The position numbers were made by a program, and so were the translations under genes. The notes beneath the pieces are model-generated. The model saw nothing but the letters and a program-made list of their open reading frames with translations, made no database searches and had not been told where the DNA came from. 64,000 nucleotides of DNA from Psammoneis japonica (taxonomy: Eukaryota): NCBI GenBank assembly GCA_008632985.1, contig QPGO01000015.1:187998-251997 (forward strand), given 5' to 3'. Positions 12,844 through 56,436 of this stretch are shown piece by piece. Each line of letters opens with the position of its first letter. The first letter of the stretch is position 1.

Positions 12844-13557
12844 TACTCACTTTCATCGTCGAAACACCAAGGGTACGACTGCAAAGCAGATATACTGTAA
12901 GTGCAACGCGTGGGAACAACAACGACAAAAACAACAGCAAACAGCGAAACAAATAATACTGTAAGATGCGGACGATGACGCGAGAAGCGCTCTTGCACAT
13001 GCGGACAGACGTCGGAGGGAGTTTTTGATTTTCAAAATTTATGTCCGTCCGGCGTTGCACGTGAAAAGCTACAAGCACCGACGGCGACCGACAGATGAAC
13101 AGGCACGATCCCGAACCAGAGCACCGCACACGCACACTGTTGAGCTGCTCTCTAGCTAGAGCTGCGTAGAGTCTCTGCCGATGCCAGCACCGTAGGCAGT
13201 GGGATGTCTTTCGGAGCGCAACCCTTGAAAGCTCATAAAAAGAGCTCGATCGCGAGTGCAGATTTTTGGAGCTTTGGATTTGGGGGATGACTCTCCTCGA
13301 TCTGCCTGGACAGCTGCTTGTGCTTTCCACAGGAATTCCGTCCTGCTCCTGTGGAAGCATGAACAAAAAAGATGCTCCAGATTCTGTCCAGGCACTGCTC
13401 TCTGTCTCTGCTCTAGCCCCACAGTGTGCTGGCTCTAGAGCCAGCAGTGGCTCTCTGCTCCTCTTGGGAGAGAGGGTTCATCGAAAATGACCAAAACCCC
13501 CAAAACGCACTGATTGACCAACTGATTTGGTCTCCAGCTAGAGCACAAATTCAGGCA

Positions 13558-16500: not shown

Positions 16501-17443
16501 CGTGAACATGGCGAAGTTGTTGGCCAGGCTTGCAGCTCACACTCCAAAGCATGCCCAGTCCCAGCAATCATGGACCAAGTCCATTGCCTCCATTCTTGCA
16601 GTGCCAACACCCGCACCCCACTGTGTGCAGTTTGTGTCGGCGCGCATTTGGACACATGTCGCCAGCTGCGCGATCACGAAAACTTCTTGCCCAAGGATGA
16701 CATGTCTCGCAGCCTCCACACCGGTGGTGCTGTGGCCTCACTGTGTGCCAAAGTCAACATGGACATCACATGCCTTGTCGGATGATGGAAATGAGATGCC
16801 ATGTTCCGACACTTGCGCGCACAAGCTCTCCCGTGTTGATTGCCGAGCTTTCAACAAAAGTTCCACACACTGTGGAAACTTCACTTTGTTGCCCAGTGCC
16901 AAAGTCCCGCCTGTCACACAAAATCTCATCAATCAAGCCGAGGCTCCTGCCACCCCAGCAAATCCTCGGCAAAACCCGCCCTCAGCTGCGCTTCTTGCCC
17001 CCACCCCTTTTTGCTCGTCGGCACTCCCAAGAGTGGTGGTGGGAGGCGGTTCTGGTGCACCAGGGAGTCACAGCAAAAACCCCAGCAAAGCACTGACACC
17101 ACCAGCCACTGCCTCCCAACTGTGGCAGGACGCAGCCCCCAGCAGCATTGGTGGCGAACAGCCATTGCAGCAGCAAAGTGGCAAGGACAGACGCGCCCAA
17201 CACCATCCGCAGCCTTGAACGGATCGGAGTGCAAACGGCATTCTCTGCCATTGCAACTCATCACCGCCTGTCGAGGCCACAGCAGCAGTTGTAATTTGAC
17301 CCACCACTCCCACCCAGGCCGCCTAGCAGGAGGCGGTTCCGGTGCTGGAGAGAGGGAGTCACGGCACAAACCCTGGTACAGTAAAGCGCTGATGCCACCA
17401 GCCACGTGCAGCCCCCAGCAGCGTTGCTTGGTGGCGAAGAGCC
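13558..17443 (+). mobile_element. Degenerate Ngaro/DIRS-group tyrosine-recombinase retrotransposon
   Basis: Split direct repeats A1 (13581-13690)...B1 (17042-17163) A2 (17186-17292) B2 (17329-17443). RT relic FLKADMADMIHKHCWTVLP, RNase H relic GTITNSDLKLSG, YR relic SLHTGGAVASLCAKVNMDITCLVG*WK*DAMFRHL. Confidence 0.85.
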
Positions 17444-37629: not shown

Positions 37630-38990
37630 GGGACTAAAGTAGGAAACGCATTCATTAACAAAAAAACGCTCTCATCATCGAATGGCAGTGTCAACGGGAA
37701 AAATGCAGTCCTCTTCGCGTGCGAAAAAGAGACGAGCAAACGGAGAGAAAAAGAGCAGAGAAGAAGGAAAGAAATTAATGATGCTGACCCAAAATAAAAT
37801 TTGCGGACCAGCCAACACTCGTCTTTGTGCCCCCACAAACATGTGTGGTGCCATGCTGCACCCAGGGTCGTGGCATTTTCAGGCACACCACTTCTCATGG
37901 CTTTTTGGTTGGCAAGAAAATTTGGTGAATGGGTTCACAGTTGTTGGTGGTGTGGATGCATTGCAGAAAAAGGGCTTTTGCCACAGCATGCCAAAAGGGG
38001 ACAAATTGTGCCACATGGGCAGAAGAAAAGCAGCGACTTCTTGGCCCACCCCTTTTCCAGCTGGGACCCCAAATGTCTTGGATGTCATTCTTTGAAAAAT
38101 GGCCACCAACAGAAAGTGGCAATGTGGAGTGTGTGACTTCATTCAAGCCCACACCTCCAACAAAGTGCCAGTGTGCAGCATGTCAGCTGCTGCGCTGCTG
38201 TGGTGGCAACAGGTTCAATGTCTCTTTGCTTTCTGCTCACCCCCTTCTCATGTCAAGTGCTGCCTGGCCAGCAAGTGCAAAATTTTTGCAGATGCCAAAG
38301 CTGCTGCTCTCCTTTTGAGGGCAAAAAAAATCGCGACAGCAAGAGAAAGCAACGCCGCGCCTCCAACAAAGTGCCAGTGTGCAGCATGTCAGCTGCTGCT
38401 GCCGCTGCTGTGGTGGCAACAGGCTCAATGTCTCTTTGCTTTCTGCTCACCCCCTTCTCATGTCAAGTGCTGTCTGGCCAGCAAGTGCAAAATTTTTGCA
38501 GATGCCAAAGCCGCTGCTCCTTTCAATGGCAAAAAAAATCGTGACAGCAAGAGAAAGCAGCGCTGCTCAAACACTCGTGCTGAATTTCCAGCTGGGGCTG
38601 GCTCTCCTGCTGCTGCAGTGACCCAAAAAAGCCAGTGGTGTGCAGGGAGAAATGAGCAGCAGGCATCCCAGCACTTCTTCTCTGTGTCAATGTGCGCCCT
38701 CGCTTTGCTGCCCTTCTCCCATCTTGGCTGCTCTGACTTTCAGCGCTGACAAAAATGAAAAAAGCAAAACAAAAAAAAAGCAGTGCCAGAGCTTTGCCAT
38801 GGCCACCCTTTGCTTTTTGCCATCACCAAGTTTTGCAAATGAGGCTGGCACAACTTGAACACGCAGCGCGTGCTGGCGGCACTTTGGCGGCCCGGAGCAC
38901 CCAGCGTACACATGCAAAAAAGAAAAAAGAGAGGCTTTGGTGCTTGGTGCCACCCGACCCACTTCAAGCAATGTCGTCGCAAATCCTGCG
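37630..38990. mobile_element. TpA-depleted repeat relic of unknown family
   Basis: Almost no TA between ~37810 and 38880; internal tandem duplication; no recognisable protein. Confidence 0.5.
38154..38560 (+). repeat. Two tandem copies of a ~206-bp unit
   Basis: CCTCCAACAAAGTGCCAGTGTGCAGCATGTCAGC... starts at 38154 and again at 38360. Confidence 0.95.
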
Positions 38991-39206
38991 CACAAATCAA
39001 AAAAGTCATAGTCATAGATTCTTCCTGTAAGAATGACTTCAAAATGCCCGAATGTCTCGGTCATAGTTCACAACCTAAATAATTGTAGTAGTTTCTCCGT
39101 CATGGTCATTGTGAAGAATGTCCCCAAAGACGAGGCACATTATTTTCGCCACAAAACCAAAGAACCATAAAGCGCACCACTCTCTGGTATCACGAAACTG
39201 AAGACC

Positions 39207-40163
39207 ATGAAAAGTACTCAGCGTCTAACAGCAACATCTCCTTCTGTCAGAGAGACTTCAAAGATAGATAAAGATGAAATCTTGGTTCGTCTCAAGGTCA
39301 TGCAATCACAGGAAGAATCAGCGACATATCGCTCCGCTGACTACCTTGGAGAAAACATGTTTTCGTCCAAATTTCGAGTAGACGAAGTTTGCCGTCTAAA
39401 AATGTGCCAATGGTGCTATCAGATTGTGAATCAGTGCAATCTTCAACGTGAAACTGTTGCTTTTGCCATGTCATACCTGGATCGATACCTGAGTACGCCA
39501 TCTGGAAGACACGTTTTATTTCAGGTTCGTCTATACCAACTTGCAGCTATGACTTCGCTTTATACTGCAATCAAGCTTCACGAGCCAATTGCCTTAGAGC
39601 CATCGGTGTTGGTAGATATAAGTCATGGTCACTACATGCTGGAAGAGATTGAAGAGATGGAGACCAGGATGCTCTTTTCGTTGAATTGGTTTGTGAACGA
39701 TCCTACCCCACAAGGCTTTGCAAGACTGATACTGTCACTTTTTCCAGACACGGTCGAGCTAGAATTGAAGGACGAGATTCATCGGAATACAATCTATCAG
39801 TTAGAACTTGCTGTTGCTCACTACGCCCTGTCGGGTACGAAGCCGTCGTCCATTGCTGTTGCTGCCGTTGCGAACGCCCTTGAAAGCGTTGAAAATGAAA
39901 AGATGAATTCAAGTATGAAGGAAGCGTTCTTGATCAGGCTCCAACAACAGTTCGAATTCGAGTTGAAGAGCCTGTCATATGTTAAAGCATCGCTAGGGCT
40001 GATTCTCCGCGGTGCTCAAAGTGATTTCGTTGACCAGACCAACTTTTGTCTATCTCCTCCTATCTCCAACCAAAGCGACATGTCTGGTTGTACTGGCGAG
40101 GCACTAGCCTCGAATACTTCAAGCCCTGTCTGTGTGCTGCGGGGTAGGCGAACACCCCAATGA
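39207..40163 (+). CDS. Cyclin (diatom-specific cyclin-like)
   Basis: Cyclin box CRLKMCQWCYQIV..LQRETVAFAMSYLDRYL..YQLAAMTSLYTAIKLHE..ME..ML..L.W..N.PTP. Confidence 0.93.
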   Translation: MKSTQRLTATSPSVRETSKIDKDEILVRLKVMQSQEESATYRSADYLGENMFSSKFRVDEVCRLKMCQWCYQIVNQCNLQRETVAFAMSYLDRYLSTPSGRHVLFQVRLYQLAAMTSLYTAIKLHEPIALEPSVLVDISHGHYMLEEIEEMETRMLFSLNWFVNDPTPQGFARLILSLFPDTVELELKDEIHRNTIYQLELAVAHYALSGTKPSSIAVAAVANALESVENEKMNSSMKEAFLIRLQQQFEFELKSLSYVKASLGLILRGAQSDFVDQTNFCLSPPISNQSDMSGCTGEALASNTSSPVCVLRGRRTPQ

Positions 40164-40435
40164 ATGATCTGTCATTCCCGGTTTCCTCAACATCGCTGTC
40201 AGATGAAAATCTGTACCTATTGCATAACTGATCATAAATCAAAGTCAATCAAATACAGTATTTCTACTGGGTCGTTTCAGATACACACATTCCAGCAACG
40301 ACAGAAAGCTCTGTCCGTTTTGCTGTTACGCACAAGCAAACGTTTCCATTCACAGTCCATACGGTAAACCGGCATGTCCTAATCTAATAAAGAGATCAAG
40401 GAACTTGAAAGCAACGCCGTTCGCGTTCTCGTCTT

Positions 40436-41098
40436 CTACTCGGCCCGAGATTTAGTTTTACTTGCCTTGAACTTTGGCCTCTTCGACCTCCTGGTGGTCA
40501 CTCGTTATGGTCCCTCTAGAGTAAGTTCCACGTCTTGAGTTTCCTCAGCTTGATTGGACAGAGTTTCTTCACCCGGGGGTTCATCAAAGGAATCTACAAT
40601 CTCCTCCAGGTGCGTTTCCATGTCTTGTTCAGGCGAAGGCTGCTGTGGTGGAGGAAGAGAGGTCTGAGACGATGCACTCTGCTCCGATTCACGAGACGTA
40701 TTTTCCGGTTGATCTGTCGACGACGAAGCCCCGACTTGTACTTTGAATACGGACAAATCTAAAACGACAAAAACAATAGAAATACCCATTCTTGTTAGCT
40801 CGGTCATGCTGATCAAGAATGAAGTCACTTTTCATCAGGATCTCACCTAGGGGGACCTTTGACTTTGGATCCAGCGCAAGAGCTACCAAATGCGGATGCT
40901 TTGAATTCTCCGATTGATATTTTCGTTTAAGCTGCTTCCTGCTGCGACTCTCAAAAAAGGACGCCATCGTCGCAAAGTCGGTACCAACCTGTCGCAATGC
41001 GTGGTAGAACAGTTTTGTCTCTTCTACAGTCCAGTGTTGCGGTGCCCGTCTAGAAACAAATGAATGATGAGAGGCTCCCACAACCGCAGTGTGTGATT
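40436..41098 (-). pseudogene. 5'-truncated duplicate of the BDP1-like gene
   Basis: Near-identical to 54882-55558 but breaks at 41098; premature stop near 40506. Confidence 0.85.
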
Positions 41099-44000
41099 GT
41101 TGCCGGCATTTTCTTATTCGTGATGACTTGATGTAATTCGACATGGTACTGTATGGAAACGTCGAAAATACCGTAGAGGTTTCGGTATGTGTCGTGGAGG
41201 ATTGCAATTATTGTTGATAAGGCAGTAGAAAGAAGAGAAGCAACTCCAAACTGCATTGTTGTTCGTTTCCAAGTACAGTGCTGTACTGCATGTGTGTCTG
41301 TGTGTACCGTATTACTCTAATAGTCTAATCTAGCATCCCCTTCGGTCGGCATTCTGATTAGTCTAACTTTTCGCGCCTCGTGATTTTCGCGTTGTTGAGT
41401 CAATCGCTGTGTCTCGGATAAAGAAACCAGCATGTTTTGGAACGCTTGTCTCTTACTTCAGTGGCACTTGGTTAATTGTTTAGAACATTGCGATGTCACT
41501 GAGATTGTGGTGGGTCACCAGCCCAATCACACTGGCAACCACTGTTTTCTGACACTCACCAGATGATTCAGCCTGGGGCAGCTTGCAATTTTGTCACTGG
41601 TGGTTTTGTGTGAAAGGATTTTTGACTGAACTTTGTCACTGCTTGTCAGCAGACTCTATCTGCTTACATTCCACCTGAGGCATCACTCTAAAAAGGACAT
41701 CCAGGTGATGCACTGGTGAGGCACTCGGAGCTCAGCTCAAGCTCCTTCCTCGAGCTGCAGCTGGTGGCGGTGTCACCTCACCCAGTTGAGTTAACCTGAC
41801 ACATTCAAGCCTTCACTTGGGGATGCCCAGACTGCTTGCAGAGCAAATGTCCACCACTCTGATTCTGTCAGTGCAAGAATCTGAAATTGCATCCAGCGCA
41901 AAGTTCGAGAGAGCTCCCCCCCAAGAGCTGGCTCCGCCAGCTGACTTTGAACAACATCTGCTGGTTCCGCCAGAAGACTGACCACCAGGTTTTCCAGTCT
42001 GCCCCTTGTGCCACCATCTTGGGCTCTGCACCACCCTGCAGCCCTTTTGAGACCCAAGAGAGCTCTTTGAGCTCACTTGTCCCAGCTGTAGATGACACGT
42101 TGGCCTGGTTCGACAGCATCGAGTGACCTGCTGGCAGCCATGGCTGGCCCAATCCTGTCAAGAGCCAGCCTCCACCGCAAGATCCTCTGCCTCCCCAGGA
42201 CAACAAGGGCACAGTCAGCTCTTCTGGGCTGCTCCCATGTGCCCACAATGATGATGAGGATGAGTCGTCTGATGATGAATCTGATGACGAGGGCTCCATG
42301 TGACCAGCTGACCGCTGTGCCATGCAATGCATGGCCACCATTTTTGCCATGGCACAATGCCCAAGACCAAGCCCAAGATCTTCAAGCCCAAGTCTCCCAA
42401 TGCAGGAGAAGTTGTCATTGCCAGCTCTGTGAAACAGGTGGCTTGGTCCAGGGGCAAGCCCAAGGCCAGCTGGTGTGGACTCAACCCCGCTGTTGCCACC
42501 ACTGCTCCCATGTCACACAATCAGCACCGCTCTTGCCATGTCCCAATCACACTCAAAGAAAAGCAAAAACTGTCAAACTGCTGGATTTTTTGCCAAGTTT
42601 GCATGCAAGGGAGATCTGTCAGTCTTTGAGAAGAGCAGAGCAGATCATTTGAAGGACTGCAGTGTGGATGCAGTCACTTGGCTCAACCCAAACAACTTGC
42701 TCCATCACAGGCACCCAACATGTGCTCCAAGTCCAGCACAGCTGAGCTGGTGGCTCCACAGCTTGCCAAGTGCAACAGCCGTGCAGCACTGCCAATGATG
42801 AGAACACAACAACTGTGTTCCTCACAAACTTGATTGAACTGGATTGGGTCACCTGGCTCAACTTGAAAATTGAAGACTCGGACCCATTCCCAAAAGTTTG
42901 AGAGAGCACTCATTGTCATTCTCCAAAGCCTGTCATCATGTGCTTCAAGGGTTCAATCCCCCACAAGCCCTCACAGTTCTTGGGACAAGACCTTCATGAG
43001 AGCTCCCAAAAAGGAGTTTGAGGTTGTCACAAAGGAGTTGGATGTCACTGGGTGGTGCAACAACAAATTGATGCTGACTCTTGTCAGCTCATGTTTGGAA
43101 GCTGAAGGCTTTGGCAAAAATGTTCAGCAGCTCAAGCACATGCTGCAAACTTTGAAAGAATGGCTTGACAACATGTCACTTGCAATTTCTTGCAAGTCCA
43201 AGTCTGACACTGAGCACATTGCCTTGCATGTTGATTCTTGATGCAAGCAACAAAGGAGACCCCAGTTGAGCAGCAAAAGTGCTGGTTGAGCTTTCAACCA
43301 ATCTCCCAGTTGGGCGGGCCTGCTGTGCAAGTCTGGCAAGTCAACAAATTTGTGAAGTGTTTTGGCTGACTCCAACGACAATGTTGAGTGACAACCTCAA
43401 TCTCTCACCTGCTGAAAAGGAGCCACTTAATTGGTGCTGTGGCCTTGGACACTTGACCTTTGAAAAGGTGCAATTTTTGACATGTGCTGGTGTTTTGGCC
43501 AAGTCTGAAAGTGTCTGTCATCTCCACAAAAGACTCTGTCAGCTTGATCATCCTTCTCTCTTTGCACTGCTTCCCACATCATCATTTGAGATCAAGAAGG
43601 AAGGAGCCTTGAAGAAAGAGCAGCTGCCCCCCCCTGAAAATGGCACCCACCACTGATCACTTTGTTTGTTCTGTGTGCTTTTTTGTCTGAAGCACACCTT
43701 TGGAAAAGAGGACACAAAGCATCAGCACTCAAGTGGTGCTGCTGTCTTTGTGGCCATGTGCCAGGTGCACAAATGTTTGACATTGAACTGACCTTAATTT
43801 CCATGAGACACTTCAAGCCACAAAATGGATTTTGAGGCCCATCATTGTGGCTTTGGCATCATTCCCCAAGCACATTTGAGCAAAATGACAGAAAGGCTCT
43901 CACTTTAGCTGATTTTTGCCAAGTCCACCTTGAATCTTTCACTGAAGTGTCAAGGTGCATCAGCACTGGAGCCCACCACCACAAAAACCAAGTGTTGCTG

Positions 44001-47000
44001 AATGTGCCACACATGCTGTCATGTCCATCACAAGGAGTGTGGATGCTGCCCTGTGGCCATTTGCCATCAACCACATGCTGTCCTGCTTTGCAGCACCATG
44101 CCTGGCCCTTCTGCTGATTGAGTCCCCAGGACATCTTTGCCAAGATGCAATTGCCAAGTGCTTTCAGGGCTGTCATGTTTTTGAGGTCACCCCCAGTTTG
44201 TGTTCTGGACAACAAAGTTGGCAATGGTGGCAGAAAGAAGTTGCCTGAATGGTGCAGCCCTGCACAAGCTGGCATGTCTGTGTGGGACTCAGCTCCAAGC
44301 ATGCATTGTCAGCCCCACCAGTCTTGAGTCTTGAAACTGGGGGCATCTCTCCACTGTTTCACACCATTTTTGACAATTTGTTTGCTGCTGTTCCTGTTGA
44401 GATCCAGACTCTCTCCCTGCCATTGGATCTCTAAAACAGACCACTTCCTTTGGAGACAGCACACATCAAGCAATGCATGCTGTGGACAAGGAAGACCAAG
44501 CAGAACAAGGAAGACCAAGCAGAAGTGAGTGCAAGTGTTGTGTTCTTGGGGAGTTGCAGATGCCACCACCCCACAGTTGCCGCTGGAGAACCTCTTTGAA
44601 TGGCTCCTTTGGCAAGCCAGGCTTCACCATCTCCACCCAGCCCACACCCAGTCCTCCTTTGGCATTGCCTGCACCCATGGAAAGAACCAACTCTCACCTT
44701 TGTTGGAGTCTTCTGCTGATCCTGCCATCTCAGACAATTTGCCTCAGAAGGAGAATGATTTGTGGGCCCTGCAATGTCTCCAAGTCCACAGAGGGAGCCT
44801 TCTGCCCCTCAAAATCTTTTCTCTCAACTCAGTCAAGAGAGGGAGGAGTTCCCTGCTGCACACCTCAACAGAGGGAGCAATGCCCCTCTCTCCCATTCTT
44901 CATGTCATTCAACCCAACAAAATCCCACTGCTCCCCAGCACCGTGGGTGCAATGGAACACAAGGAAGCAGACAAATCATGGCTCACTTTGCCAGTTTTCA
45001 TTGTGTCCACAAGTTTGATCATGGCTGCAACATTTCCATGCCCCCACTCCTTTGGCACTTGAGCCTTTGGTTGGCACCACACAAAATCAAGAATCTGCTG
45101 GGTGCCTTGTCATGAAAAGACAAAGCTGTGCAAAGCCCCAATTGCAAGAAGTGGCTTGACTTGGCCAAGATGGAGGTTGGCTGCACTGCCCTTGTCCATC
45201 AAGGAATGTGGTGGGCTGAAGCACCCACATCCAAAGCCAAACCAAGATTCTCCCCAACACTTGAGCATTTTGTTGCAAACTGTTGCCATCGGCTGAGATC
45301 AAGAAACTCAAGAAGGCTTGCTGTTGCTGTCATGGTGATCTTCAAGAAGAGGGAGTCTCCCCAATGCTTGTGCTCCTGTGGCTGCTGCATTGAGTGCTGT
45401 GCATTTGTTCCTTGTCTTGGTTGAGGAGTCTAATCTTGAGCTGGTCCACAGCACTGGCAGATTTTCAGCTTGGATTCATCAAGTCTGCCAAAGGTCTCAG
45501 AGTTTGTCTCAAGCTTGTCAAGAGTCTCTGTGAACTCTCCCACTCTGCCCCAAAATTGTTGTGTGAGCATTGTCCACGAGCCTTCCTTGACACCTGGAAT
45601 TTGTCCAGAGCAAGCATGATCTGCACCTCCTGCTCTGATCTATGATTGCCTTGTTGTGTGCATGCAGGTCAACAACTGTGGCATCATTGCAGTGCAAGAG
45701 CCCACCATCAATCAAGTGATCTTGCAGCTGTGGAGCAAAGGACTCAATCAAGAAAAAGACAATTGGTTTTTCATCAAGTTGTTGTGGGTTGATTGAGAAG
45801 ATCCTCTCAGCCACAGGAATGAAAGAGACTGCAGGCCCAATCTGCTTCCTGCTGCTGCTTGTCTGCAACATGTTTCTGTGCTTGACAAGAGCAGACCTTG
45901 TCAATTTAAAAAAAAAATTGCATGCTTGCCAATTGTTTCCACAGATCTTCAATTTACACAATTGTCAATTTTGTTTCTTGTCAGTTGTTGAGTTTGCCAG
46001 TTTTAAGTTGCCTGTGTGACTTGTTTTGTCATGCATTTTACAAACTTAAGTCTTTGTGCATTTTTTCTCTTTTCCTCACATTTGTGAGCTCTTTCCCTTT
46101 TGTTTTGCTCTGCTTCTGCCACATCTGTCCTTTTTTCCCACTGCACACCTCACAACCCATCCTCCAATCTAACACTTGGCAAATGGCAATGGCACGCCAT
46201 TGTCATGATCCACTCTGTCCCGGTTGGATGTCTGACAACAACAACCAGTGCACTCTCCACCGACATTTTCAAAGGTGTCCCCAGTGTTCTTCTTTCCTCC
46301 ATTTTGGCCTCAACAATGCATCTCCTTCTCCTGACCACTCCCTGAGCAACAGCGGTGCCTCCAGCTCTCTTGATGCATCAGGGCCTCTCCATCATTTCCT
46401 TGATTCAAGCACCAAAGGATCAATGTCCCTGTCTCTCCAGGATGGTGATTTGTCACACCTTTTTCCATTTCCTCCTGCCAGTGATCAATCCCAATGAACT
46501 GGGGGGGAGATTCCCCCTTTAATGACAACGTTGTTGATGCACATCACTCGCTGGATGTGGAAGAAGTTGGTGCTGGCTCTCTTGCTTGAGACCCACCCGA
46601 TGATCATTTCTGCTGTGACAATGTCCTTTTTCTGGAGGAGGAGTTCAATCTTCTCTCAGCACATCATTCTCACTCATCTTCTTCCCTCTCTGACAAGGAC
46701 AACATCAACAATCATGATGATGATGGGCTTGCACTGCTTTGATCCACTGGATTTGGAGGAGATGGAAGAAGCTCAACTGCTGGAACCTCCATGCATTTGT
46801 GAAACCAACACCACCAAAAAGCTTCACCCAGTGGAGGAAGAGCAGGTTAGGATGACAAAGAAGCATCATCTGTCTCACGGTTTGTGCAAGGATTTTCTTT
46901 CCTTGGCCAAATGCGCCAAGGAGAGTGGCTGTGAGCACAAGTCTTTGTCTGGCTCCACGGCCTTGTGATGCATGAAAACAAAGCATGCCAATTGTGTGGG

Positions 47001-49599
47001 CCTGGAGCACCCATTGTTTGCTCCACTGTGCATGTTGGACCCGTGTTCCCCCCAGCACATGTGTGCAGATTTTCCTTTCTGCATTGTGTGAGAAGGCTGT
47101 TCTGCAATCCCGAGGTTGTCCAGCAGCGTCAGTGGTCATGCCATAAAAAGTGCTGCCCCAAAACAAACAAGTGCATTGGCAACTCCCTTGACACTGGAGA
47201 CTGGTGGAAGCAAGCTTGGTGTGATCTCAAATGTTCCCTTGCTGATTTTGGCAATGGCTGCTCTTTTGGGTCTCACTTTGTTGGCCCAGTTGTGTGCTGT
47301 TTGACAATTCCACCCCATGTGACAACACAGGTCATCTGCGAGCACAACCCGTCCTTGCAACATTGGGCAATTTGAGTGATGAGAGTTGCTGCAGCCACTC
47401 CCTTGGCCAACACTTGGAATGGTGCTGCCACACCCAAAGACAAGCAATGAGTGCACCTGCTGCTGACCATCAGCCAAAGCTTGGACAGGAGACATGCATC
47501 AAGTTCCACCACAGCATGTTGTGGGAGACATTGACCAAGTTGCTTCAACTGTCAAAGCAAAAGACTGGTTTCCCAATTGTGATGCCATCTCTTGGCTTTG
47601 TCCATCTTCACTTTTGATTGTGCATGACAGTTGGCAATGCAAAAGGTCACAATGACATGGCTTGTCACTGCAACTCCCAGCATTCTGGCAACACATCTCA
47701 GACAAATGGGGGCTGTGACATGCTCAACACTTTGGTGACAATCCCTTGTTTGGCTGCAATTTGGTGGAAAAAGATGGCATCCAGGGGACAGCGGAGGCTG
47801 CCATGACAGCCATGGAGGAAAGGCACCACAGCAAAGTGACTGCAGCTTGTGAATGGTGCAAGGACATTTCACAGAACTTGGCTCATCCTGTGTTTTGGGA
47901 CCTCCCTCATGGTGGAGGACAGCATGGCACATTTGGCATGCTGCCCTGGGAACTGTTGCACGCCCTTTGCTTGAGCCTTTGCAAGCACCTCCTTCATGCC
48001 TTCTTCAACCTGTGCCAAGACCCAGAAAACAAGTTGTCATGGCATCATGACCTTTTGGTGATGAGGAATGCACAATGGATGACTGACTGTCTGGCACACT
48101 CAAGGAGCTTCCCAAGCCATTTGACAAAGCTGAGTTTGAGAGATGATTCAGAGTTGCCACACATGCATCCAGGAGGCAAAGTGATTGGAGTGAGCAAAGA
48201 ACTCCATTTGAGAATGGAGTTGCCAACCAGACTCATCCGTCTGGCCAAGAGCATGTCTTTGGAACTGGATGTGGCATTGTCCCTGTCATCAAACAAGGAA
48301 ATCCTTCTCACTCGGCTGCAGAAATGCATTCTCAAGCATCTGCAATTGTTTCAATTTGTTGTCGGCCCATTCTGAGAGTGTTGTTCTTGGTCTGGACTTT
48401 GTGCATCCAAGCTCCATGGCTTTTTGCACTTTCTGTTTTACACCCATCAGTGCGGCAATGCCAACAATTTTTTGGGGGGGTTTCTGTGAAGCTCTTCTTG
48501 GGACACTTCAGAAACAACCTGCTAAAAAACCAGTCATTGGCTAGATGGGATTGGCCTTGATGTGATGAATCATTGCTGTGAGGAGGACCTTGTTGCAAGG
48601 GAATCAGAAAAGGATTTGTTGGATGCAGGTTGGCTGCATGAAAAAGATGATCAGGCTCCTGCACCCCAGCCATCAAATCATGGATGCACAGACCCTGTCA
48701 CAGGATTCAAACCACTCAAATCTGCAATGACAGCCACTCGGGCCACAGACGCATCTGGCAACAATGCCGCATGGTCTGCAAAATGTGGAGATGAACAGCT
48801 GCAGAGACCTTCACATCCCTGTTTGTTCCAGGCAATTGTGGCAATGAGTGGGTGGCATCTTTGCTCCATCATGCAGAACATGATGATGCCTTCCCCGCTG
48901 AGCTTGTGAACTTTCACTTTGGACATGATGCTCCGGGCCCTGGGGATGATGAACATTGCATTTGCTCCAACAAGATGCCACCCAAACTTTCACTCACATT
49001 CCATGGAAATGAAGGAGTTGGCACAACTGGGCACCACAGTGAAGTGGGATGAGGAGCAAATGAGCTGTTCGGTCACAGCTCGTGTGTTGTGGGTGACCTT
49101 AGAAGATCAAATGATGGAACAAAAATCTGCAGTTTTTGCAATTCAATCACTTCAGAGCTTCACCCCCAACAAAGATTCTCTCTTGACCTTTTTCATGGGC
49201 AATGAAATGGAGTCAGAAATCAGAGTTGTTGATGCCAGGGACATGTTGTCTGCCACCTTTGTTCTTCCGTCAAACAAGGTTGCCACCATGAAAATGTGGG
49301 ACACAAGGTGAGGCACAAGAAGAGAAAGAGGAAATGAGTGTCAGATGCACAGAGCATGGAGCTCGGGCTGACAATGCAAATGACTGGCATTTTTGCGAAT
49401 CTTTGCACACAGACATTGTGATGCATGCTGAGGCAAAAAGGGAGATGGGCAGCAGGGGCGGCACAAAGGTGAGTGGAAACAGTGTGAGAAACAAGCCATT
49501 TGGAAACAGAAGAGATGCAAAACTCTGGTCAATCGTGTGCTGTTTTCTCTTGTTGCAGGCAATGCTTTGGCCACCAAATGGGAAAAATGAAAGAGAGGC

Positions 49600-49692
49600 T
49601 GCAGCCTGGAATGGACACTCTTGGAAAGAGCTTGTGTGAACAGAGATTGCAGCCTGGAATGGACACCCCTGGAAAGAGCTTGTGCAGAGAGT
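49600..49692 (+). repeat. Two copies of a ~48-bp tandem repeat
   Basis: TGCAGCCTGGAATGGACAC.C.TGGAAAGAGCTTGTG occurs twice. Confidence 0.9.
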
Positions 49693-50195
49693 GACAGCAA
49701 CCACAAGGGAGGACACCATCATGACCAAAACACCAGGACACAATCATGCATGGATTGCAGAGGACAAAGGGGAACTGGTGGGATGTGCAAGAGAAAAACA
49801 AGAGTGGGGAACAGGAACCAAAAGAGCATCATTCAGTGCCAAAACAAGATGACAAAACCAGTGCAAACAAGCAGCACACAGCCACTGCACAACAAGGTCA
49901 ACACGGCTGATGCACATCATTGTTGTCAGACCTGAACAAATGCGCACTTGTTGAGAAAGACACAATTGCAAATCACAGGTTTCATTTGTTGTTGTTTCCC
50001 ACTTGGAAGGTCAGTTTGAACATGAACAGAAACACAACTGTTGTTAGAATGAGCAGCAATGGGGAATTGTCAAGATTGCACACACAATGAGACTGATTTA
50101 TTTTGAGCATTAAATCCCACTTGGAAGGTTAAAACAAGGGTTGAAGACCCTTCACACACAATCAATTGGCACTTGTTAACCTTTCAACCACCACA

Positions 50196-50659
50196 GAGCA
50201 AATCTCCATAGGTGGAGATTAGCTCCACTTGAGGAATTGTGATGTGTCAGCAATTCACATGATGATGCAATGAGCACAGCACAAAAATGTCACATCATGC
50301 ACAATCTGCACAAAATGCACCACATGCACTTGCTCATTGTGAGCAAATCTCCAGTGGTGGAGATTTGCTCCAAGGGTGTGGCACTTTTTGCTCTGTTGCA
50401 ATGACAGCTCATCACAAACTGGGTTGTCACAGGTTGAGATGCAGTTCCTCTCTGTTCACAGATGAAGCATGCAAAAAACCCGGTGTCAAAAGTTGACATT
50501 GAACTTTCAAAATTGCAAGAATGGTCCCCCAGTGCTCTTTCTGCAAATGCTCGTTCAAAACAAAATTGTGCAAAAATGTTTGCCGTGCATGTCCAAAAAT
50601 GTTTCATTTTGCACATTTGTGATGCAAGCAAGCAAATGTCCATGGGTGGAGATTTGCTC
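50196..50659. repeat. Three copies of a 30-bp palindrome
   Basis: GAGCAAATCTCCA-N4-TGGAGATTTGCTC at 50196, 50341 (perfect) and 50630. Confidence 0.9.
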
Positions 50660-53429
50660 AAGTCCGGTGGTTGAAGGGTTAAGAAAATGGGGTTCTCATT
50701 GAGTGCACATGAATTCTGAACAAGAGCCACACTGTTTTCCAGATGCTGGCCCTTCAAAATGGGAATGCTCTTGTGCCTGTCTGCTGACACTTACCCTGAC
50801 ATGTCTGTTGCCATCAACCAGATCACACAGCCCAACTCACCACCAAAACAGGTGCACGGCACTGTGTCCAAGACTCTGATTTGACACCTCAAGAGGACTT
50901 GCAACCAGAAAATGCCTCTGTCTCCCATGGGTCTTCTTGAACTTGACCTTCAGTGGATGCTGATTTTGCCAGCCCATTTCTCAGTGAGCCAGACACAGAT
51001 CTCAGTCTGGTGTGGTTGCACACCAGATGCTTGGTCACTCCAAGTGGCTGCCAGTTGGTCTGGAATTCACAGCTTCAGACAGCCTCTGTGTTCTCAACTC
51101 TTGAAGCTGAATGTCAAGCTGCATCCTGCACTCTTTGGACTCTCTTCCCATTGAAGAACATGCTCCTCTCAGAGGTGGTTTCTGTCCTTTTTTGTCTCCC
51201 AAGATCTCAGGACCCCTCTGTCTGTGCCTGAGTTTTCAAAGACAACCAAAGAGCCTTTTCTGTCTCGCTGCCAATTGCCACACTGCCAACCACACCAAGC
51301 ACTTCTCACCAAGCCATGCTGGTTGTGGGCTCACTGCAACGAGTTTGTGGTGTGGTCAAGGTGGAGTTGGCTGGCCAACTTGAGCAACTGATTGAAGAAG
51401 GCTGCTTCTCATGTTTGTTGCATGCTGTGGCTTGAGTCATGATGCAAGAGCTGTGCTCTGAATTTGTGCCAATTGTGCAAGAAGCTTCTTCATTTTTGCA
51501 AATTTTCAGTCAGTTGCTGGAATCTGTGAGTGAGAGGGAGAGATGTGGGCCCATTCACACATTTGTCCAGCAACCAAGTCTGCCCATGTGTCTGCTGCAC
51601 ACTTCCGTTGTTGGCCAGAGCTCAAACCAAAATTTTTTTGCACCACATTGACCCCATCATTGAGTTGGTCACTGTGTCTTGGTTGAGAGACCAGCACATG
51701 CTGAAACACTCATTTCTTGCTTCAGCAGTGCTTGGCCAATTATTTGGAACATTGTTGTCACTGGTGAGATTGTGCTGGGTTGCCAGCGCAGTGTTGCTCG
51801 CTGCATGAGCAACAATTGTTTTTTTCTGACACTCACTGGATTCAGTCCACATGGCTGACAACTGGTGACTGGCAGTTTTGTGAAAGGATTTTTGACTGAA
51901 CTTTGTCGCTGTTTGTTGGCAGACTCAATCCACTTGTGTTCTGCCTGATGCATTGCACTGGAGCAGACATCCAGGTGATGTGCTGGCAAGGTGCTTGGAG
52001 CCCCCCCCCCCCACACAGACAGACAGACAGACACACACACACACAAGCTTCAACTCACGGTGGTGAGCAGCAAGGTGCCACATTAAAACGCACACCAGCA
52101 GTGCTCTCACATCTGGCATCCAGCATGTCCAGCATCGGCACACTGCAACTGGACTGCAGCAGGCTGTCTCTGGAGAGCAAAGGCATGCATCATGCAACAT
52201 GGTCGGCCCTGTGAGAGGATGGCTCAGCTGCCCCACACAGTCTTTGCTGTTTGGCGCACTGGTGATGATGGATTCTTCTGGATGTGTGATCTGGACAACT
52301 GTGCACCGGCAACCAAAGAGCAAAAAAATGTGCCTGAAAGAAACTTGAGCAGGAAAATTCAAAAGAAATGACCCTTGACCCACCATTTTGAAATCATGGT
52401 GCAGACTTTCATGTGCAACAGAAAAGGGGAAAAGAGACGCCCTTCTTTTTGACTCCCTGGGCTGGTTCAACAGCTGGGCATGACTGGCTTTGCCTCAACA
52501 ACCACCACATGGGGGGTTTCTCTGTGCAAGCAACTTCACTCAATCAGCCAGGCTTCTGTTTCTGTCTCACAACAAGGCACTGCTGTCTCCTGCCTTTTGG
52601 GTCACCTGTCATTCTCTTGACAATCTTTGTCATCTCCTTTTGTTGTTGCTGTTGCCTGGCAACTGATGTCTGTTGATGCAATGCAACAGCAGCTTCAGAC
52701 CCAGGTTCTTGAGGTTTGTCTCAAGAGTCACCACCACAATCTTGCTCTGGCAGGGCACCCTTGACTGAGACTCAAGCAAGTCATGTCAAGCGTGCCGCAA
52801 AAGAGCCCAACTTGCAAATTTTTCAATCCACTCAAAATGTGTTTGAAAGATTTGTTGCTGTTGTCATCACATGCTTGTTTTGTGCTCCACAAACCAGTGA
52901 CAGGGCTGACCTTGTTGAGGGCAAACAGCAACCTGCCAAGGCTGAAGCAATGCAGGCCTTGAACAAACCAGCATGGTTGCACCACACCAGCCAGAAAAGT
53001 CACAAACTTGCTGAGGGATCTTTTGTTTTTGCCTTTTTGCACTGTTGTTTGAAGACACAACACAAACTTGGCCACACAAGCAAGAGGCACAATCATGGAG
53101 TTTTTTCCACCAACATTTGAGCTTGAGAAGCTCTGCAGTTAAAAAAGGAGCCAGCACTGCTCTTAAAAAACAAGTTGAGGTGCCAAGCAGAAAGAAAGAC
53201 AAAGGTGGCTCTTGCAATGAGATGCCAGCCAACAACAATGAAGTTGGAAAAACAGGTTGTTTGAGCTGCCATCTTTCTTGATTCTTTTCTTTGGCAACAG
53301 GTTGAAGGTGGGCTGGGCTGGGAAATGCAAAATCCAAAAAAACAGCCCACAAAGAACTGCGCCACAGATTCACAAGAAAACGTCAAAATGATGCCATCAT
53401 GGTGGCCAGGGAGCTTTGCACCACCTGCG

Positions 53430-54603
53430 TTCCTGCAAGAGCAACTTCAAAATGCCCCAATGTCTTGGTCTTGGCTCCTCATGCCCTGAACAACAGCCGC
53501 AATTTCTCTGCAATGGTCACTGTGAGCAATGCCCCAAGAGGCACATGTCATTTTTGCTGCAAAATCAACAGAGCCACAAAAGTGCACCATCCAACTCTGT
53601 GGCATTACAAAATTGAAAACAATGAAATGCACCCAGCAGCATCTGACATTGACAATGTCAACATCTCCTCCTTGTGTCCAAGAGACTTCACAGACAAAGT
53701 TGAAACTTGGCTCTTCTCAATTTTGCACTGTCAAAGGAAGAATCAACAACATGTTGCTCTGCTGGCTGCTGAGTGACTTGGAGAAAACATCTTTTCTTCC
53801 AAAGTTTGAGCAGACAGAGCTTGTCATCTAAAAATGTGCCAGTGGTGCTGTCAGATTGCAGGTCAGTGCAATCTTCAATGTGGAGCTGTTGTGGTTGCTG
53901 AGTCACACTTGGATCAATGCCTGAGTGTGCCACCTGGCAGACCTCATGTTCTGTTTCAGGTTCATCTGTTCCAACTTTGTAACTCACTTCACACTGCAAT
54001 CAAGCTTCATGAGCTAATTGCCTTGCAGCCATTGGTGTTGGCAGAAATCAGTCTCATGGTCACTGCATGCTGGAGAGAAGAGATTGAAGAGATGGAGAAC
54101 AGCTCACGCCCTTTTCTCTCAATTGGTGTGCAAACAACCCTGCCCCACACGGCATTGCAAGCCTGATGCTGTCACTTTTCCCAGACACAGTCGAGCTGGA
54201 ATTGAAGGATGAGATTTGTTGGATCACGAACTGTCAGTCAGAGATTGCTCTTGCTCACTGCGCTCTGTCGGGTGCGAGGTCGTCGTCCATTGTGCTGTTG
54301 CTGCCATTGTGAACCCCCTTGAAAGCATTGAAAACGAAAACATGAATCAAGCACAAAGGAAGCGTTCTTACTCAGGCTCCAACAACAGCTCGAATTCGAG
54401 TTGAAGAGATGTCACATGTTAAAGCATTGCCAGTTGGGCTGATTCTCCACCGTGCTCAAAGTGATTTCGATCACCAGACCAACTTCTATTTATCTCCTCC
54501 AATCTCCAACCAATTCGACATGTCTGGTTGTATTGGCGAGGCACTATTATCGAACACTTCAAACCCAGTCTGTGTGATGCGGTGTAGGCGAACACCCCAA
54601 TGA
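53430..54603 (+). pseudogene. Hypermutated cyclin duplicate, including upstream sequence
   Basis: Collinear with 39020-40163; has frameshifts and systematic TA and CG changes. Confidence 0.93.
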
Positions 54604-54881
54604 ATGATCTGTCATTCCTGGTTCCTCTGGGAAGGCATGTATATCGCAGTCAAATGAAAATCTTTAGCTATAACTACTCACAAATCAAAGTCAATCAAAT
54701 ACAGTATTTCTACTGGGTCGTTTCAGATACACACATTCCAGCAACGACAGAAAGCTCTGTCCGTTTTGCTGTTACGCACAAGCAAACGTTTACAACACAG
54801 TCCATACGGTAAACCGGCATGTCCTAATCTACCAAAGTGATGAAGGAACTTGCAAACAACGCCGTTCGCCGTTCCCGTCTT

Positions 54882-56220
54882 CTACTTGGCCCGAAATTTA
54901 GTTTTACTTGCCTTGAACTTTGGCCTCTTCGACCTTCTGGTGTTCGTTCGTTTTGGTCCCTCTAGAGTAAGTTCAACGTCTTGAGTTTCCTCAGCTTGAT
55001 TGGACAGAGTTTCTTCACCCGGGGGTTCATCAAAGGAATCTACAATCTCCTCCAGGTGCGTTTCCATGTCTTGTCCAGGCGAAGGCTGCTGTGATGGAGG
55101 AAGAGAGGTCTGAGACGATGCAGTCTGAGACGATGCACTCTGCTCCAATTCACGAGACGTATTTTCCGGCTGATCTGTCGACGACGAAGCCCCGACTTGT
55201 ACTTTGAATACGGACAAATCTTAAACGACAAAGACAATAGAAATACCCATTCTTGTTAGCTCGGTCATGCTGATCAAGAATGGAGTCACTTTTCATCAGG
55301 ATCTCACCTAGGGGGACCTTTGACTTTGGATCCAGCGCAAGAGCTACCAAATGCGGATGCTTTGAATTCTCCGCTTGATATTTTCGTTTAAGCTGCTTCC
55401 TGCTGCGACTCTCAAAAAAGGACGCCATCGTCACAAAGTCGGTACCAACCTGTCGCAATGCGTGGTAGAACAGTTTTGTCTCTTCTACAGTCCAGTGTTG
55501 CGGTGCCCGTCTAGAAACAAAGGAATGATAAGAGGCACCCACAACCGCGGTGTGCGATTCTTCTTCCACCACATGCTGGAATTCCTCTTCCACTTCTTGA
55601 ACTGGGACCCGTGCACCCGGGACAACCATACTGGACTCCTGTAACACAATTTCTCCATTGATAACCTGCACAACCGGCCCACTTGAAGTTACTGCAGCTT
55701 CTGCTTGAGCTGCGTCTGGAACCGGCTCGGCGGCCGCGTTCTCCTTTTGCTTCTGACGTTTCTCCTTCGAACGGAACTTGCTACAAAAAGCCTGTAATGT
55801 GTTTTGACCAGGTAAGGCTGAGGGAACATCAGGCTCCGGAACGACAGACGGTTGCGCAACAGCAGTTCCATCCTCTTGTGCGACTTCTTCATCGTGCTCT
55901 CGTACCGGACGAGAGACACCAATGGCCACCCCGGTTGACGCCTTGCGCTTTTTCCCTCCGCTTCGCCGCGGCGCTTTCGCCAGTGAAGAATCATTTGTAA
56001 CATTAGAGCTTACATCTTGATCTTCCGAATCTGGAGGTTGTTCGTTTGATGTATCTTGATTATTCGAGAGTACTGATGCTTCCTCCTCAACGTCCTCGCT
56101 GGGAGGTGGAGGGGCAGCGGTGACCACAGAAGTGGGAGGATTTCTGGGTTTTCGTTGGTTGGCGGGGCGGAACGTCGGTCGACCTTTCCTGCTACTTTTG
56201 TTCGATCTGTTGCTAGACAT
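54882..56220 (-). CDS. BDP1: TFIIIB B'' subunit (SANT-like domain), intron 55220-55307
   Basis: GPVVQVINGEIVLQESS, WTVEETKLFYHALRQVGTDF..M..FF..RSRKQLKRKY..E. Confidence 0.85.
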
Positions 56221-56436
56221 TATAGCTCTCTACAGATCCTCAGCCTCAGTGCAGAATACCGGGCAGCATCATTGTGGATTTTGCGTTTTGCGGCGTCGGC
56301 TTGTCGGCTGAAGCACTGCGATGTGGCGGCCGGGCGGCCGGCCGGCATCGCGTGCGTCGTTGCGCGTGTTGCGGCGCGCTTCGCCACGATCTACTGTTTG
56401 CCGTCCCAGCTCCATGATGCCACGTGTAAAAATTAA

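Follow-up and report, generated by a model that had tools for sequence, protein, structure and literature searches.

A 64,000-nt stretch of contig QPGO01000015.1 (Psammoneis japonica, assembly GCA_008632985.1, positions 187,998–251,997), here called the window, contains three blocks in which the dinucleotide TpA (TA) has been nearly erased in favor of TpG (TG) and CpA (CA). The largest of these converted blocks runs into one copy of a duplicated cyclin gene, and the other, unconverted copy provides a direct record of the changes. The comparisons directly support TA-specific loss, its polarity, its dependence on flanking bases, and its strand symmetry; they also show that the loss took place in situ and can be separated from a loss of CpG in the same blocks. 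The best reading, which we regard as reasonably probable, is a DNA-level, domain-limited hypermutation of TpA to TpG or CpA on both strands of silenced repeat DNA, probably through adenine deamination.

In a 1-kb dinucleotide profile, blocks at 13.3–17.3 kb, 37.8–38.9 kb, and 41.48–54.4 kb stand out, with TA observed/expected ratios of 0–0.19 and TG+CA ratios of 1.5–1.95, compared to 0.4–1.0 and 0.9–1.3 in the rest of the window. Positions 41450–54400 hold 45 TA in 12,951 nt (3.47 per kb), against 1821 (40.9 per kb) in the remaining 44,547 nt of the window, which served as unconverted comparison DNA. TG and CA are exactly equal in number at 1439 each (111 per kb), ∼1.6-fold above their unconverted densities of 72.5 and 67.3 per kb. 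CpG (CG) is depleted as well (97 sites, 7.5 per kb vs 58 per kb), and the GC content of the main block (0.44–0.53) is not lowered.

A self-comparison of the window in a purine/pyrimidine (RY) alphabet, in which transitions are hidden, matched 39022–41060 to 53430–55521. This duplication of ∼2 kb, in which homology begins sharply at 39022/53430, comprises an intact cyclin gene with a 3′ fragment of a Myb gene in its first stretch (copy A) and a cyclin pseudogene with the full Myb gene in its second (copy B). Because copy A keeps an intact frame with both Cyclin_N and Cyclin_C, it represents the ancestral state and fixes the polarity of the differences. Copy B lost 42 of the 43 TA of its converted part (up to 54352) and 27 of 27 CG, whereas only 3/32 and 4/54 sites, respectively, changed in the flank; other dinucleotides of the converted part were 60–90% kept. 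Between alignment columns 120 and 1000, the 40 aligned TA became TG (18) or CA (14), with one kept and seven other outcomes, and the 32 aligned CG became TG (13) or CA (11), with four kept and four other outcomes, i.e. 24 of 28 lost CG ended as TG or CA. A>G changes in the cyclin pair were concentrated after T (18/40 at TA), compared to 10/72 at AA, 7/64 at CA, and 8/63 at GA. Since the duplication runs unbroken from 96% identity into the converted state, the change occurred in place and at the level of DNA.

Copy B (53428–54451) also gained CpG sites, for instance where TG became CG (54107, 54335) or CA did so (54227), and it carries ten CA↔TG double changes. From these two observations, pyrimidine–purine (YR) steps seem to cycle through unstable TA and CG states.

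The converted sequence was recovered independently. The stretch was listed for DNA contigs of a single sample and for no RNA data set. Contigs from an independent run (X1), each representing the DNA of one sample in which rare variants would be invisible, cross both borders of the main block, matching 41105–45889 with one difference and 50656–54613 with none, at the depth of the neighboring genes (55–77). This agreement across the borders, at single-copy depth, rules out a chimera or a miscall at modified bases.

Flanking bases and the direction of TpA loss

An earlier, sequence-only reading of this stretch held that nearly all of the few leftover TAs lie in TTA or CTA and/or TAA or TAG contexts, and that none has the form RTAY (R, purine; Y, pyrimidine). 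The counts bear this out. The 45 standing TA of the main block are preceded by T (31), C (10), A (2), or G (2), thus by a pyrimidine in 41 cases, and followed by A (24), G (9), C (8), or T (4), thus by a purine in 33. By class, there are 29 YTAR (TTAA 15, CTAA 7, TTAG 6, and CTAG 1), 12 YTAY, and four RTAR, while GTAC, ATAT, ATAC, and GTAT are all absent. The seven TA left in the 13300–17290 block (CTAG three times, CTAA, TTAG, TTAC, and GTAC) comprise five YTAR.

That reading had also proposed comparing NTAN counts (N, any base) between converted and other DNA; equal depletion of the classes fails on two different baselines. The first takes the TA share among N-YR-N sites of unconverted DNA and yields 522 original TA with an overall survival of 0.086. 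On this baseline, uniform depletion is rejected (G = 93.1, reached by 0 of 200,000 multinomial simulations), with RTAY observed 0 times vs 11.6 expected (P = 9e-6) and YTAR 29 times vs 9.1. The second assumes that standing TA were made anew from sequences one step away (NCAN+NTGN) within the block, and gives 29/731 for YTAR, 16/1517 for the mixed classes, and 0/630 for RTAY (Fisher 2e-8 for RTAY vs YTAR, and 2e-5).

We further fitted a per-strand multiplicative model, in which TA survival depends on the base 3′ of the adenine, with factors of 0.81 for A, 0.27 for G, 0.11 for C, and 0.07 for T (likelihood ratio 73.3, 3 df). The model under-predicts TTAC (eight observed vs 2.8), the reverse complement of which, GTAA, occurs once. 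At the +2 position, A is enriched with both strands pooled (0.47 vs 0.26).

The cyclin pair shows which base of the TA changed. Here we considered lost TA that ended as TG or CA, dropping six other outcomes (CC twice, GC, TC, TT, and AA), three sites at gaps, and the kept sites. Ratios of TG to CA were 8:2 for YTAY, 1:8 for RTAR, 5:8 for RTAY, and 4:2 for YTAR, and 16 of 19 polarised sites in the two informative classes (YTAY and RTAR) follow the rule that the adenine preceding a pyrimidine is the one replaced (two-sided binomial p = 0.0044). Two specific statements of the sequence-only reading, that GTAR goes to GCAR and that YTAY mostly goes to YTGY, agree with these data: T became C at all five GTAR sites of the converted part (four to CA, one to CC), and TG outnumbered CA eight to two at YTAY. 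Across the block, the product ratio (YTGY+RCAR)/(RTGR+YCAY) is 895/620 = 1.44, where 1.11 is predicted without the rule and 1.41 with the share of 0.84 seen in the cyclin pair. The adenine before a pyrimidine is therefore supported as the changed base by both the 16 of 19 sites and the product ratio, with a 3′ order of T, C > G >> A; the simple purine/pyrimidine division in which the claim had been cast proved too coarse, given the gap between A (0.81) and G (0.27) and the base counts at +2.

Both strands are affected. TG and CA are equal over the block, and TG and CA outcomes are not clustered by strand along the cyclin copy (17 runs vs 19.5 ± 3.0 expected, runs test). The earlier description of an enzyme-like signature acting on both strands thus holds as to the strands, while ‘enzyme-like’ is an interpretation of it.

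The term ‘surviving’, which the sequence-only reading used for the remaining TA, fits in part: the context ranking stands, and four of the five TA in the fully converted cyclin part are new. The only ancestral one is CTAA at 53829; the others arose from CA, TG, or GA (in TTAC twice, CTAA, and GTAA). Standing TA therefore largely represent a steady state between re-creation and destruction. Protection of YTAR is likewise relative, as six of seven YTAR sites in the converted cyclin part were still lost.

Domain borders, CpG loss, and the converted target

Both borders of the main block are gradients (Table 1). At the left, inside the first copy of a 330-bp direct repeat, the first ∼90 bp keep TA and CG that are lost from the other copy, and the next 300 bp are half converted. 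At the right, inside cyclin copy B, TA loss gives way between 54415 and 54681 (five changed, seven kept, one gap) to 29 of 32 kept beyond 54700. CG is lost at all 27 sites to 54188, then kept at 6/8 in 54192–54284, 3/10 to 54450, and 50/54 beyond. This gradient spans ∼300 bp, with TA loss extending 150–300 bp past CG loss; all seven TA at 54197–54352 are lost where six of eight CG at 54192–54284 are kept.

Loss of CpG forms a component of its own, because its border differs, because the 13300–17290 block retains CG, and because NCGN classes are depleted fairly evenly; deamination of 5-methylcytosine would be its simplest cause. In the 13300–17290 block, TA falls to 0–4 per kb and is gone entirely over 2.5 kb, while CG observed/expected is still 0.3–0.5. 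Relative densities of the NCGN classes in the main block range from 0.07 to 0.28, i.e. with weak flank dependence.

The 330-bp repeat copies, which resemble long terminal repeats (LTRs), show 16 TG↔CA double differences vs 30 concordant TG/CA pairs. Together with their high purine/pyrimidine identity, these differences indicate that each copy resolved the same YR sites independently, after duplication. The 45.3–51.2 kb part is a repeat family, and its other copies are TA-poor too. By an arithmetic estimate from site densities, independent conversion of identical copies would leave ∼91% likeness. On the reading favored here, the block consists of an element from a repeat family, bounded by LTR-like flanks, together with the host sequence next to it, all rewritten in place.

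A motif able to form hairpins (GCAAATCTCCA..TGGAGATTTGC-like) occurs three times at 50190–50670, within the part of highest copy number, where summed depth rises to ∼1500, and to 6348 at 50494. These copies may be a nested element resembling a miniature inverted-repeat transposable element. A metagenome scan with the 19-base hairpin motif of this part returned five loci, none of converted composition, which are chance matches. At the end of the right repeat copy, a C-run followed by low-complexity (ACAG)n/(AC)n lies at 51997–52055, and contigs break there.

Table 1. Features of the window, by position in the 64,000-nt stretch
Feature	Position	Strand	Observations
Second converted block	13300–17290		7 TA (none 14829–17291); CpG about half lost
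Third converted block, directly upstream of cyclin A	37800–38900		0 TA in 1.1 kb; X1 contig (record 2, 38482–40173) bridges right border
Unconverted duplicate A, cyclin + Myb/Bdp1-like 3′ fragment	39022–41100		Lies between two converted blocks
Intact cyclin gene, copy A, unconverted	39171–40163	+	Open 330-aa frame; Cyclin_N E = 8.4e-16, Cyclin_C E = 2e-4
Duplicated Myb/Bdp1-like 3′ fragment	40689–41207	-	Open 172-aa frame; full-scoring Myb_DNA-bind_7 domain (E = 1.5e-22)
Left border, ∼300-bp gradient inside left 330-bp repeat copy	41390–41800		TA and CG normal to 41481; 7 TA in 41454–41792, then ∼1/kb
Left copy of 330-bp direct repeat (LTR-like)	41404–41735	+	Flanks ∼10 kb of block; 69% nucleotide and 91% purine/pyrimidine identity to right copy
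Main converted block	41482–54400		TpA and CpG nearly erased, TpG and CpA ∼1.6-fold up; ends single copy, depth 63–70 as flanking genes
High-copy repeat-family part of block	45312–51170		Summed contig depth 117–1500 vs ∼60 elsewhere; 355/704 contigs 90–95% alike
Right copy of direct repeat, fully converted	51668–52000	+	Homologous sites of left copy converted here
Cyclin pseudogene, copy B, converted part of 2-kb duplication	53430–54670	+	RY-space match and alignment
Right border, gradient inside cyclin copy B	54190–54700		CpG and TpA borders differ
Unconverted remainder of duplicate B	54670–55521		96% identical to A at non-target sites (27 differences/710)
Full Myb_DNA-bind_7 (TFIIIB B″/Bdp1-like) gene adjoining block	55150–56229	-	E = 5e-22

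The window is eukaryotic, intron-poor DNA that encodes an ATP-citrate lyase, EF-2, an amino-acid transporter, a cytochrome-b5 desaturase, the cyclin, and the Myb/Bdp1-like gene. Among named relatives, the lyase frame is closest to a Bacillariaceae MAG (84%), followed by Ectocarpus (78%), Fibrocapsa (77%), and Phytophthora (74%), which points to a stramenopile, probably a diatom; for the desaturase, the named diatom matches were distant (32%). Between the third and the main block lies an unconverted island of 2.5 kb (39000–41480), with converted DNA on either side (37.8–38.9 kb and 41.48–54.4 kb). It holds the intact cyclin, the non-functional Myb-gene fragment at 40689–41207, which lacks the N-terminal half of the gene, and ∼380 bp of TA-rich sequence. 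The Myb fragment and the spacer are untouched though under no obvious selection, and the island either arrived after conversion or was shielded by something. Within the third block, 38149–38564 is a tandem duplication with a period of ∼206 bp, visible only in purine/pyrimidine coding (137 shared 24-mers), and at the second block an RY repeat pairs 13581–13689 with 17186–17294. Homology between the three blocks was not found, either with 24-mer purine/pyrimidine seeds or with a strict RY local alignment, whose scores were not above those of shuffles while a positive control worked; a first scoring scheme was too lax to inform, and the stricter one was used.

Protein content was searched against Pfam. 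The 148 stop-to-stop frames of at least 70 aa from the three blocks gave chance-level matches and none to a transposon or viral domain at significance, gag_pre-integrase coming nearest at E = 0.026. When six whole frames were translated across their stops, each stop being written as X, 0 families matched, and twelve 500-aa read-through segments of 41.8–46.9 kb gave nothing relevant at E ≤ 1. With no significant transposon or viral domain, the case for a foreign or selfish target is its copy number and its LTR-like repeats.

The frame at 43270–43653 (+) reads ...PLNWCCGLGHLTF... (W-C-C-G-L-G-H, by eye), as CGN-to-TGN (Arg to Cys) changes would give. We take it to resemble the W-H-R-R-L-G-H of the copia integrase zinc-finger region, as a lead whose statistical support is the same gag_pre-integrase match. 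In the second block, 16174–16782 (+) contains S-C-P-L-C and weakly matches OTT_1508_deam (E = 0.0097 among the 148 frames), the window's sole deaminase-like match, which is at chance level for Cys/His-rich converted frames. The loss of TAA and TAG leaves converted DNA with long spurious open frames; those of 283, 273, 254, 256, and 356 aa on both strands of 13583–17218 have no Pfam match, and gene finders would probably call genes there.

Proposed mechanism and alternatives

Under the reading that we favor, a domain-confined mutational process would rewrite chromosomal DNA in place, turning TpA into TpG or CpA through A:T to G:C transitions, which may fall on one strand or the other. The nucleotide that follows the adenine on its 3′ side would set the choice of strand, with T and C acting fast, G slower, and A much slower, and with A at +2 adding protection. 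YTAY would become YTGY and RTAR would become RCAR; RTAY would go either way and vanish fastest, and YTAR, TTAA above all, would persist or re-accumulate. The most likely chemistry would be conversion of adenine in DNA to hypoxanthine, which is read as G, by a polynucleotide adenine deaminase with a requirement for T on the 5′ side. At the level of the signature, the A>G excess at TpA and the 3′ order T, C > G >> A resemble those of a TadA/ADAT2-like enzyme. Such a deaminase would be steered to chromatin of silenced or repeat regions, the edges being blurred over ∼300 bp, a nucleosome scale. CpG loss would be a second process in the same domains, and the ∼5-fold rise in other substitutions and indels would accompany both. 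We infer the deaminase, its chromatin targeting, and a role in defense from these features.

Several points weigh against this reading or narrow it. The direction test comprises 19 sites at one locus, the expected-TA baseline presupposes an original composition of the block like that of the surrounding window, and the steady state of standing TA means that we report persistence rather than simple survival. A>G changes off TpA are frequent too, making up 25 of 43, and among 676 non-target positions of the converted cyclin part, 126 carry a difference (78 transitions, 48 transversions). CpG loss calls for its own process, and the converted frames yielded no transposon or viral domain. Finally, in the accessible excerpt of one report, BjADAT2, the one ADAT2 whose action on DNA has been characterized by experiment, prefers GAA (adenine) and TCG (cytosine) in E. 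coli rather than TA (PMC10354150), so that on present data ADAT2 fits the 5′ T poorly.

The sequence cannot separate an adenine-centered event in T-A-Y from a thymine-centered event in R-T-A on the other strand. A thymine-centered chemistry is accordingly conceivable, though in our estimate unlikely: the T of R-T-A in silenced DNA would be oxidized to 5-hydroxymethyl- or 5-formyl-uracil by a TET/JBP-type dioxygenase and mispair with G, giving T-to-C. The symmetry of the data suits it, as each A-in-TAY event is also a T-in-RTA event on the opposite strand. Dinoflagellate DNA is enriched for 5-hydroxymethyluracil at TpA, a TpA of the kinetoplastid telomere repeats carries base J, and 5-formyluracil mispairs with G. 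By analogy, however, the only experimental precedent for a TpA signature would speak for adenine, having been read by its authors as adenine deamination. We give a low probability to a by-product of repair, in which frequent T:G mismatches from 5-methylcytosine deamination in methylated DNA would recruit long-patch or mismatch repair with an error-prone, Pol eta-like polymerase that produces A-to-G at TA among other errors. It would account for CpG loss in the same domains, for transversions and indels that are raised ∼5-fold there, and for domain edges that are gradients. The Pol eta signature is a WA motif (W, A or T), with A>G at TA and AA alike, and this is not what the cyclin pair shows, where A>G at AA was no higher than at CA or GA. 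Nor would such a by-product be expected to reach 150–300 bp beyond CpG loss, or to saturate TA loss in the 13300–17290 block with ∼40% of CpG remaining. Moreover, in the main text of a preprint on Bigelowiella natans, TpA mutations appear without C>T (1/231 non-AT>GC; Mettrop et al. 2026, bioRxiv 10.64898/2026.01.13.699255).

The raised non-target change in the converted cyclin part (11.5% transitions and 7.1% transversions, plus 58 gap columns) bears on a different explanation, age. Non-target divergence falls from 18.6% in the converted part to 10.6% in the transition zone (33/312) and 3.8% in the flank (27/710), a ∼5-fold difference between converted part and flank, as a gene-conversion tract boundary would give. 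The converted cyclin half could then be old and slowly decayed under a weak TA/CG bias, with gene conversion keeping the right-hand 850 bp like copy A and no burst at all. Age alone cannot remove 42 of 43 TA while other dinucleotides are mostly kept, and it accounts neither for the flank-dependent direction nor for 0 TA in 2.5 kb of another block; a TA-specific process would still be required, so that the inferred rate changes and the motif does not. We therefore consider age without such a burst improbable as a full account. The raised non-target change reflects either a process, or repair of its lesions, that is generally mutagenic, or an older half next to a flank homogenized by gene conversion, and both accounts still need a TA-specific, flank-dependent process. 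Another route would start from a double-stranded transcript that was hyper-edited by an ADAR-like activity, reverse transcribed, and inserted in its edited form. The A-to-G changes on both strands with a 5′ U preference resemble such editing, and the LTR-like repeats are suggestive of a retroelement. ADARs favor G on the 3′ side and act on RNA, and to our knowledge they occur in animals only. Here 3′ G is disfavored (survival 0.27 vs 0.07–0.11 for T and C), conversion passes from the element into a host gene copy and unbroken into unconverted sequence, both borders are gradients, and the two repeat copies were resolved independently, all of which makes RNA editing very improbable. We think it equally far-fetched that no mutation took place, whether because the block is a foreign element that natively avoids TA and CG, or because modified bases misled the assembly or the base calling. 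Modified DNA can give systematic long-read miscalls, and the many copies of 45.3–51.2 kb that are 90–95% alike are necessarily TA-poor too; yet independently converted identical copies would by estimate be about that similar anyway, a host cyclin paralogue is converted, and independent-run k-mer contigs match across both borders with 0–1 differences.

Relation to known systems

Fungal repeat-induced point mutation (RIP) is likewise a domain-wise, dinucleotide-directed transition hypermutation of selfish or repeat sequences, which can leak into single-copy neighbors and destroy genes. RIP acts mainly at CpA. In the excerpts available to us, ascomycete RIP is described as C-to-T. RIP thus creates TpA and raises A+T, unlike the blocks described here, where TpA is destroyed and CpA/TpG are created; the polarity is opposite, with TA in the intact cyclin and TG or CA in the pseudogene. 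We regard RIP as a functional analogue whose dependence on repeats may or may not extend to these blocks. CpG decay in methylated transposons resembles the CpG half, and only that half, of the pattern, with CG becoming TG or CA at most lost sites and weak flank dependence.

The natural site of tRNA adenosine deaminases is U33-A34 of anticodon loops. TadA and ADAT2-ADAT3 deaminate an A beside a 5′ U/T, which fits a T-A-pyrimidine target, as a resemblance of signatures. In the accessible part of a report on base editors, the TadA-8e A48E editor prefers a ‘YAC’ context (PMC13109818), so the fold can read such a context. ADAR footprints in retroelements and viruses are similar in being clustered A-to-G changes on both strands with a 5′ U preference, as the Discussion of the B. 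natans preprint notes for ADAR hyper-editing (bioRxiv 10.64898/2026.01.13.699255), and dissimilar in their RNA substrate and 3′ G; the change described here is at the DNA level and in place, with 3′ G disfavored.

It is possible, though we hold it only tentatively, that stramenopiles and Rhizaria share an old DNA-editing defense in which an adenine deaminase derived from the tRNA A34 enzyme, steered to silenced chromatin, rewrites every TAY on both strands. Such an enzyme would still read its ancestral U-A-pyrimidine site, and editing would continue until the element is unreadable. Spill-over of ∼1 kb could kill host neighbors, such as the cyclin copy, and the flank rule would be the enzyme’s fingerprint.

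A single account of TpA-directed hypermutation came from the open full text of PubMed Central and bioRxiv, subscription journals not being covered, and no account there concerned diatoms or further stramenopiles. According to its main text, 230 of 231 mutations in the integrated nucleocytoplasmic large DNA virus (NCLDV) and virophage of B. natans mutation-accumulation lines were A>G or T>C, all of these on TpA (Mettrop et al. 2026, bioRxiv 10.64898/2026.01.13.699255). The preprint describes 124 clusters of TpA-poor, CpA+TpG-rich windows, names an ADAT2 homologue as a candidate while citing BjADAT2, and reports a long-term footprint in which transposon-like genes and clustered windows of 1 kb are depleted in TpA and have gained CpA+TpG. 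CpG has 0 occurrences in that main text, which likewise contains no ‘context’, ‘flanking’, or ‘trinucleotide’; flanks may be treated in its supplements.

The pattern described here shares with B. natans the conversion of TpA to TpG/CpA on both strands, the confinement to discrete regions, and the depletion of TpA with gain of CpA+TpG; adenine deamination is the proposed cause in both. The host differs, being a stramenopile, probably a diatom, rather than a chlorarachniophyte. Loss is near saturation here (TA observed/expected of 0.02–0.12 per kb vs a TpA Rho of 0.45 in the NCLDV region), and it is accompanied by other substitutions, indels, and CpG loss in place of the pure 230/231 spectrum, a contrast between long-term decay and a short experiment that may not be comparable. 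The target here comprises a high-copy part with 330-bp flanking direct repeats, no significant transposon or viral domain, and a host cyclin gene copy that was also hit; a flank rule, TAY > TAG >> TAA, is evident as well.

If the signature holds here, the process is no curiosity of one alga and may be widespread in the stramenopile–alveolate–Rhizaria (SAR) lineages. The flank rule (T-A-T/C fast, T-A-G slower, T-A-A slow) constrains any candidate enzyme, and the borders look like the edges of chromatin domains, across which the process spilled into a host gene. For annotation, converted blocks lose all protein homology, carry false frames, and would escape repeat and gene finders. The process is of the same kind as the B. 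natans hypermutation, in a different eukaryotic supergroup and known so far from one 2026 preprint, to which the blocks described here add a flank rule, separability from CpG decay, the behavior of domain edges, and the collateral loss of a host gene copy.

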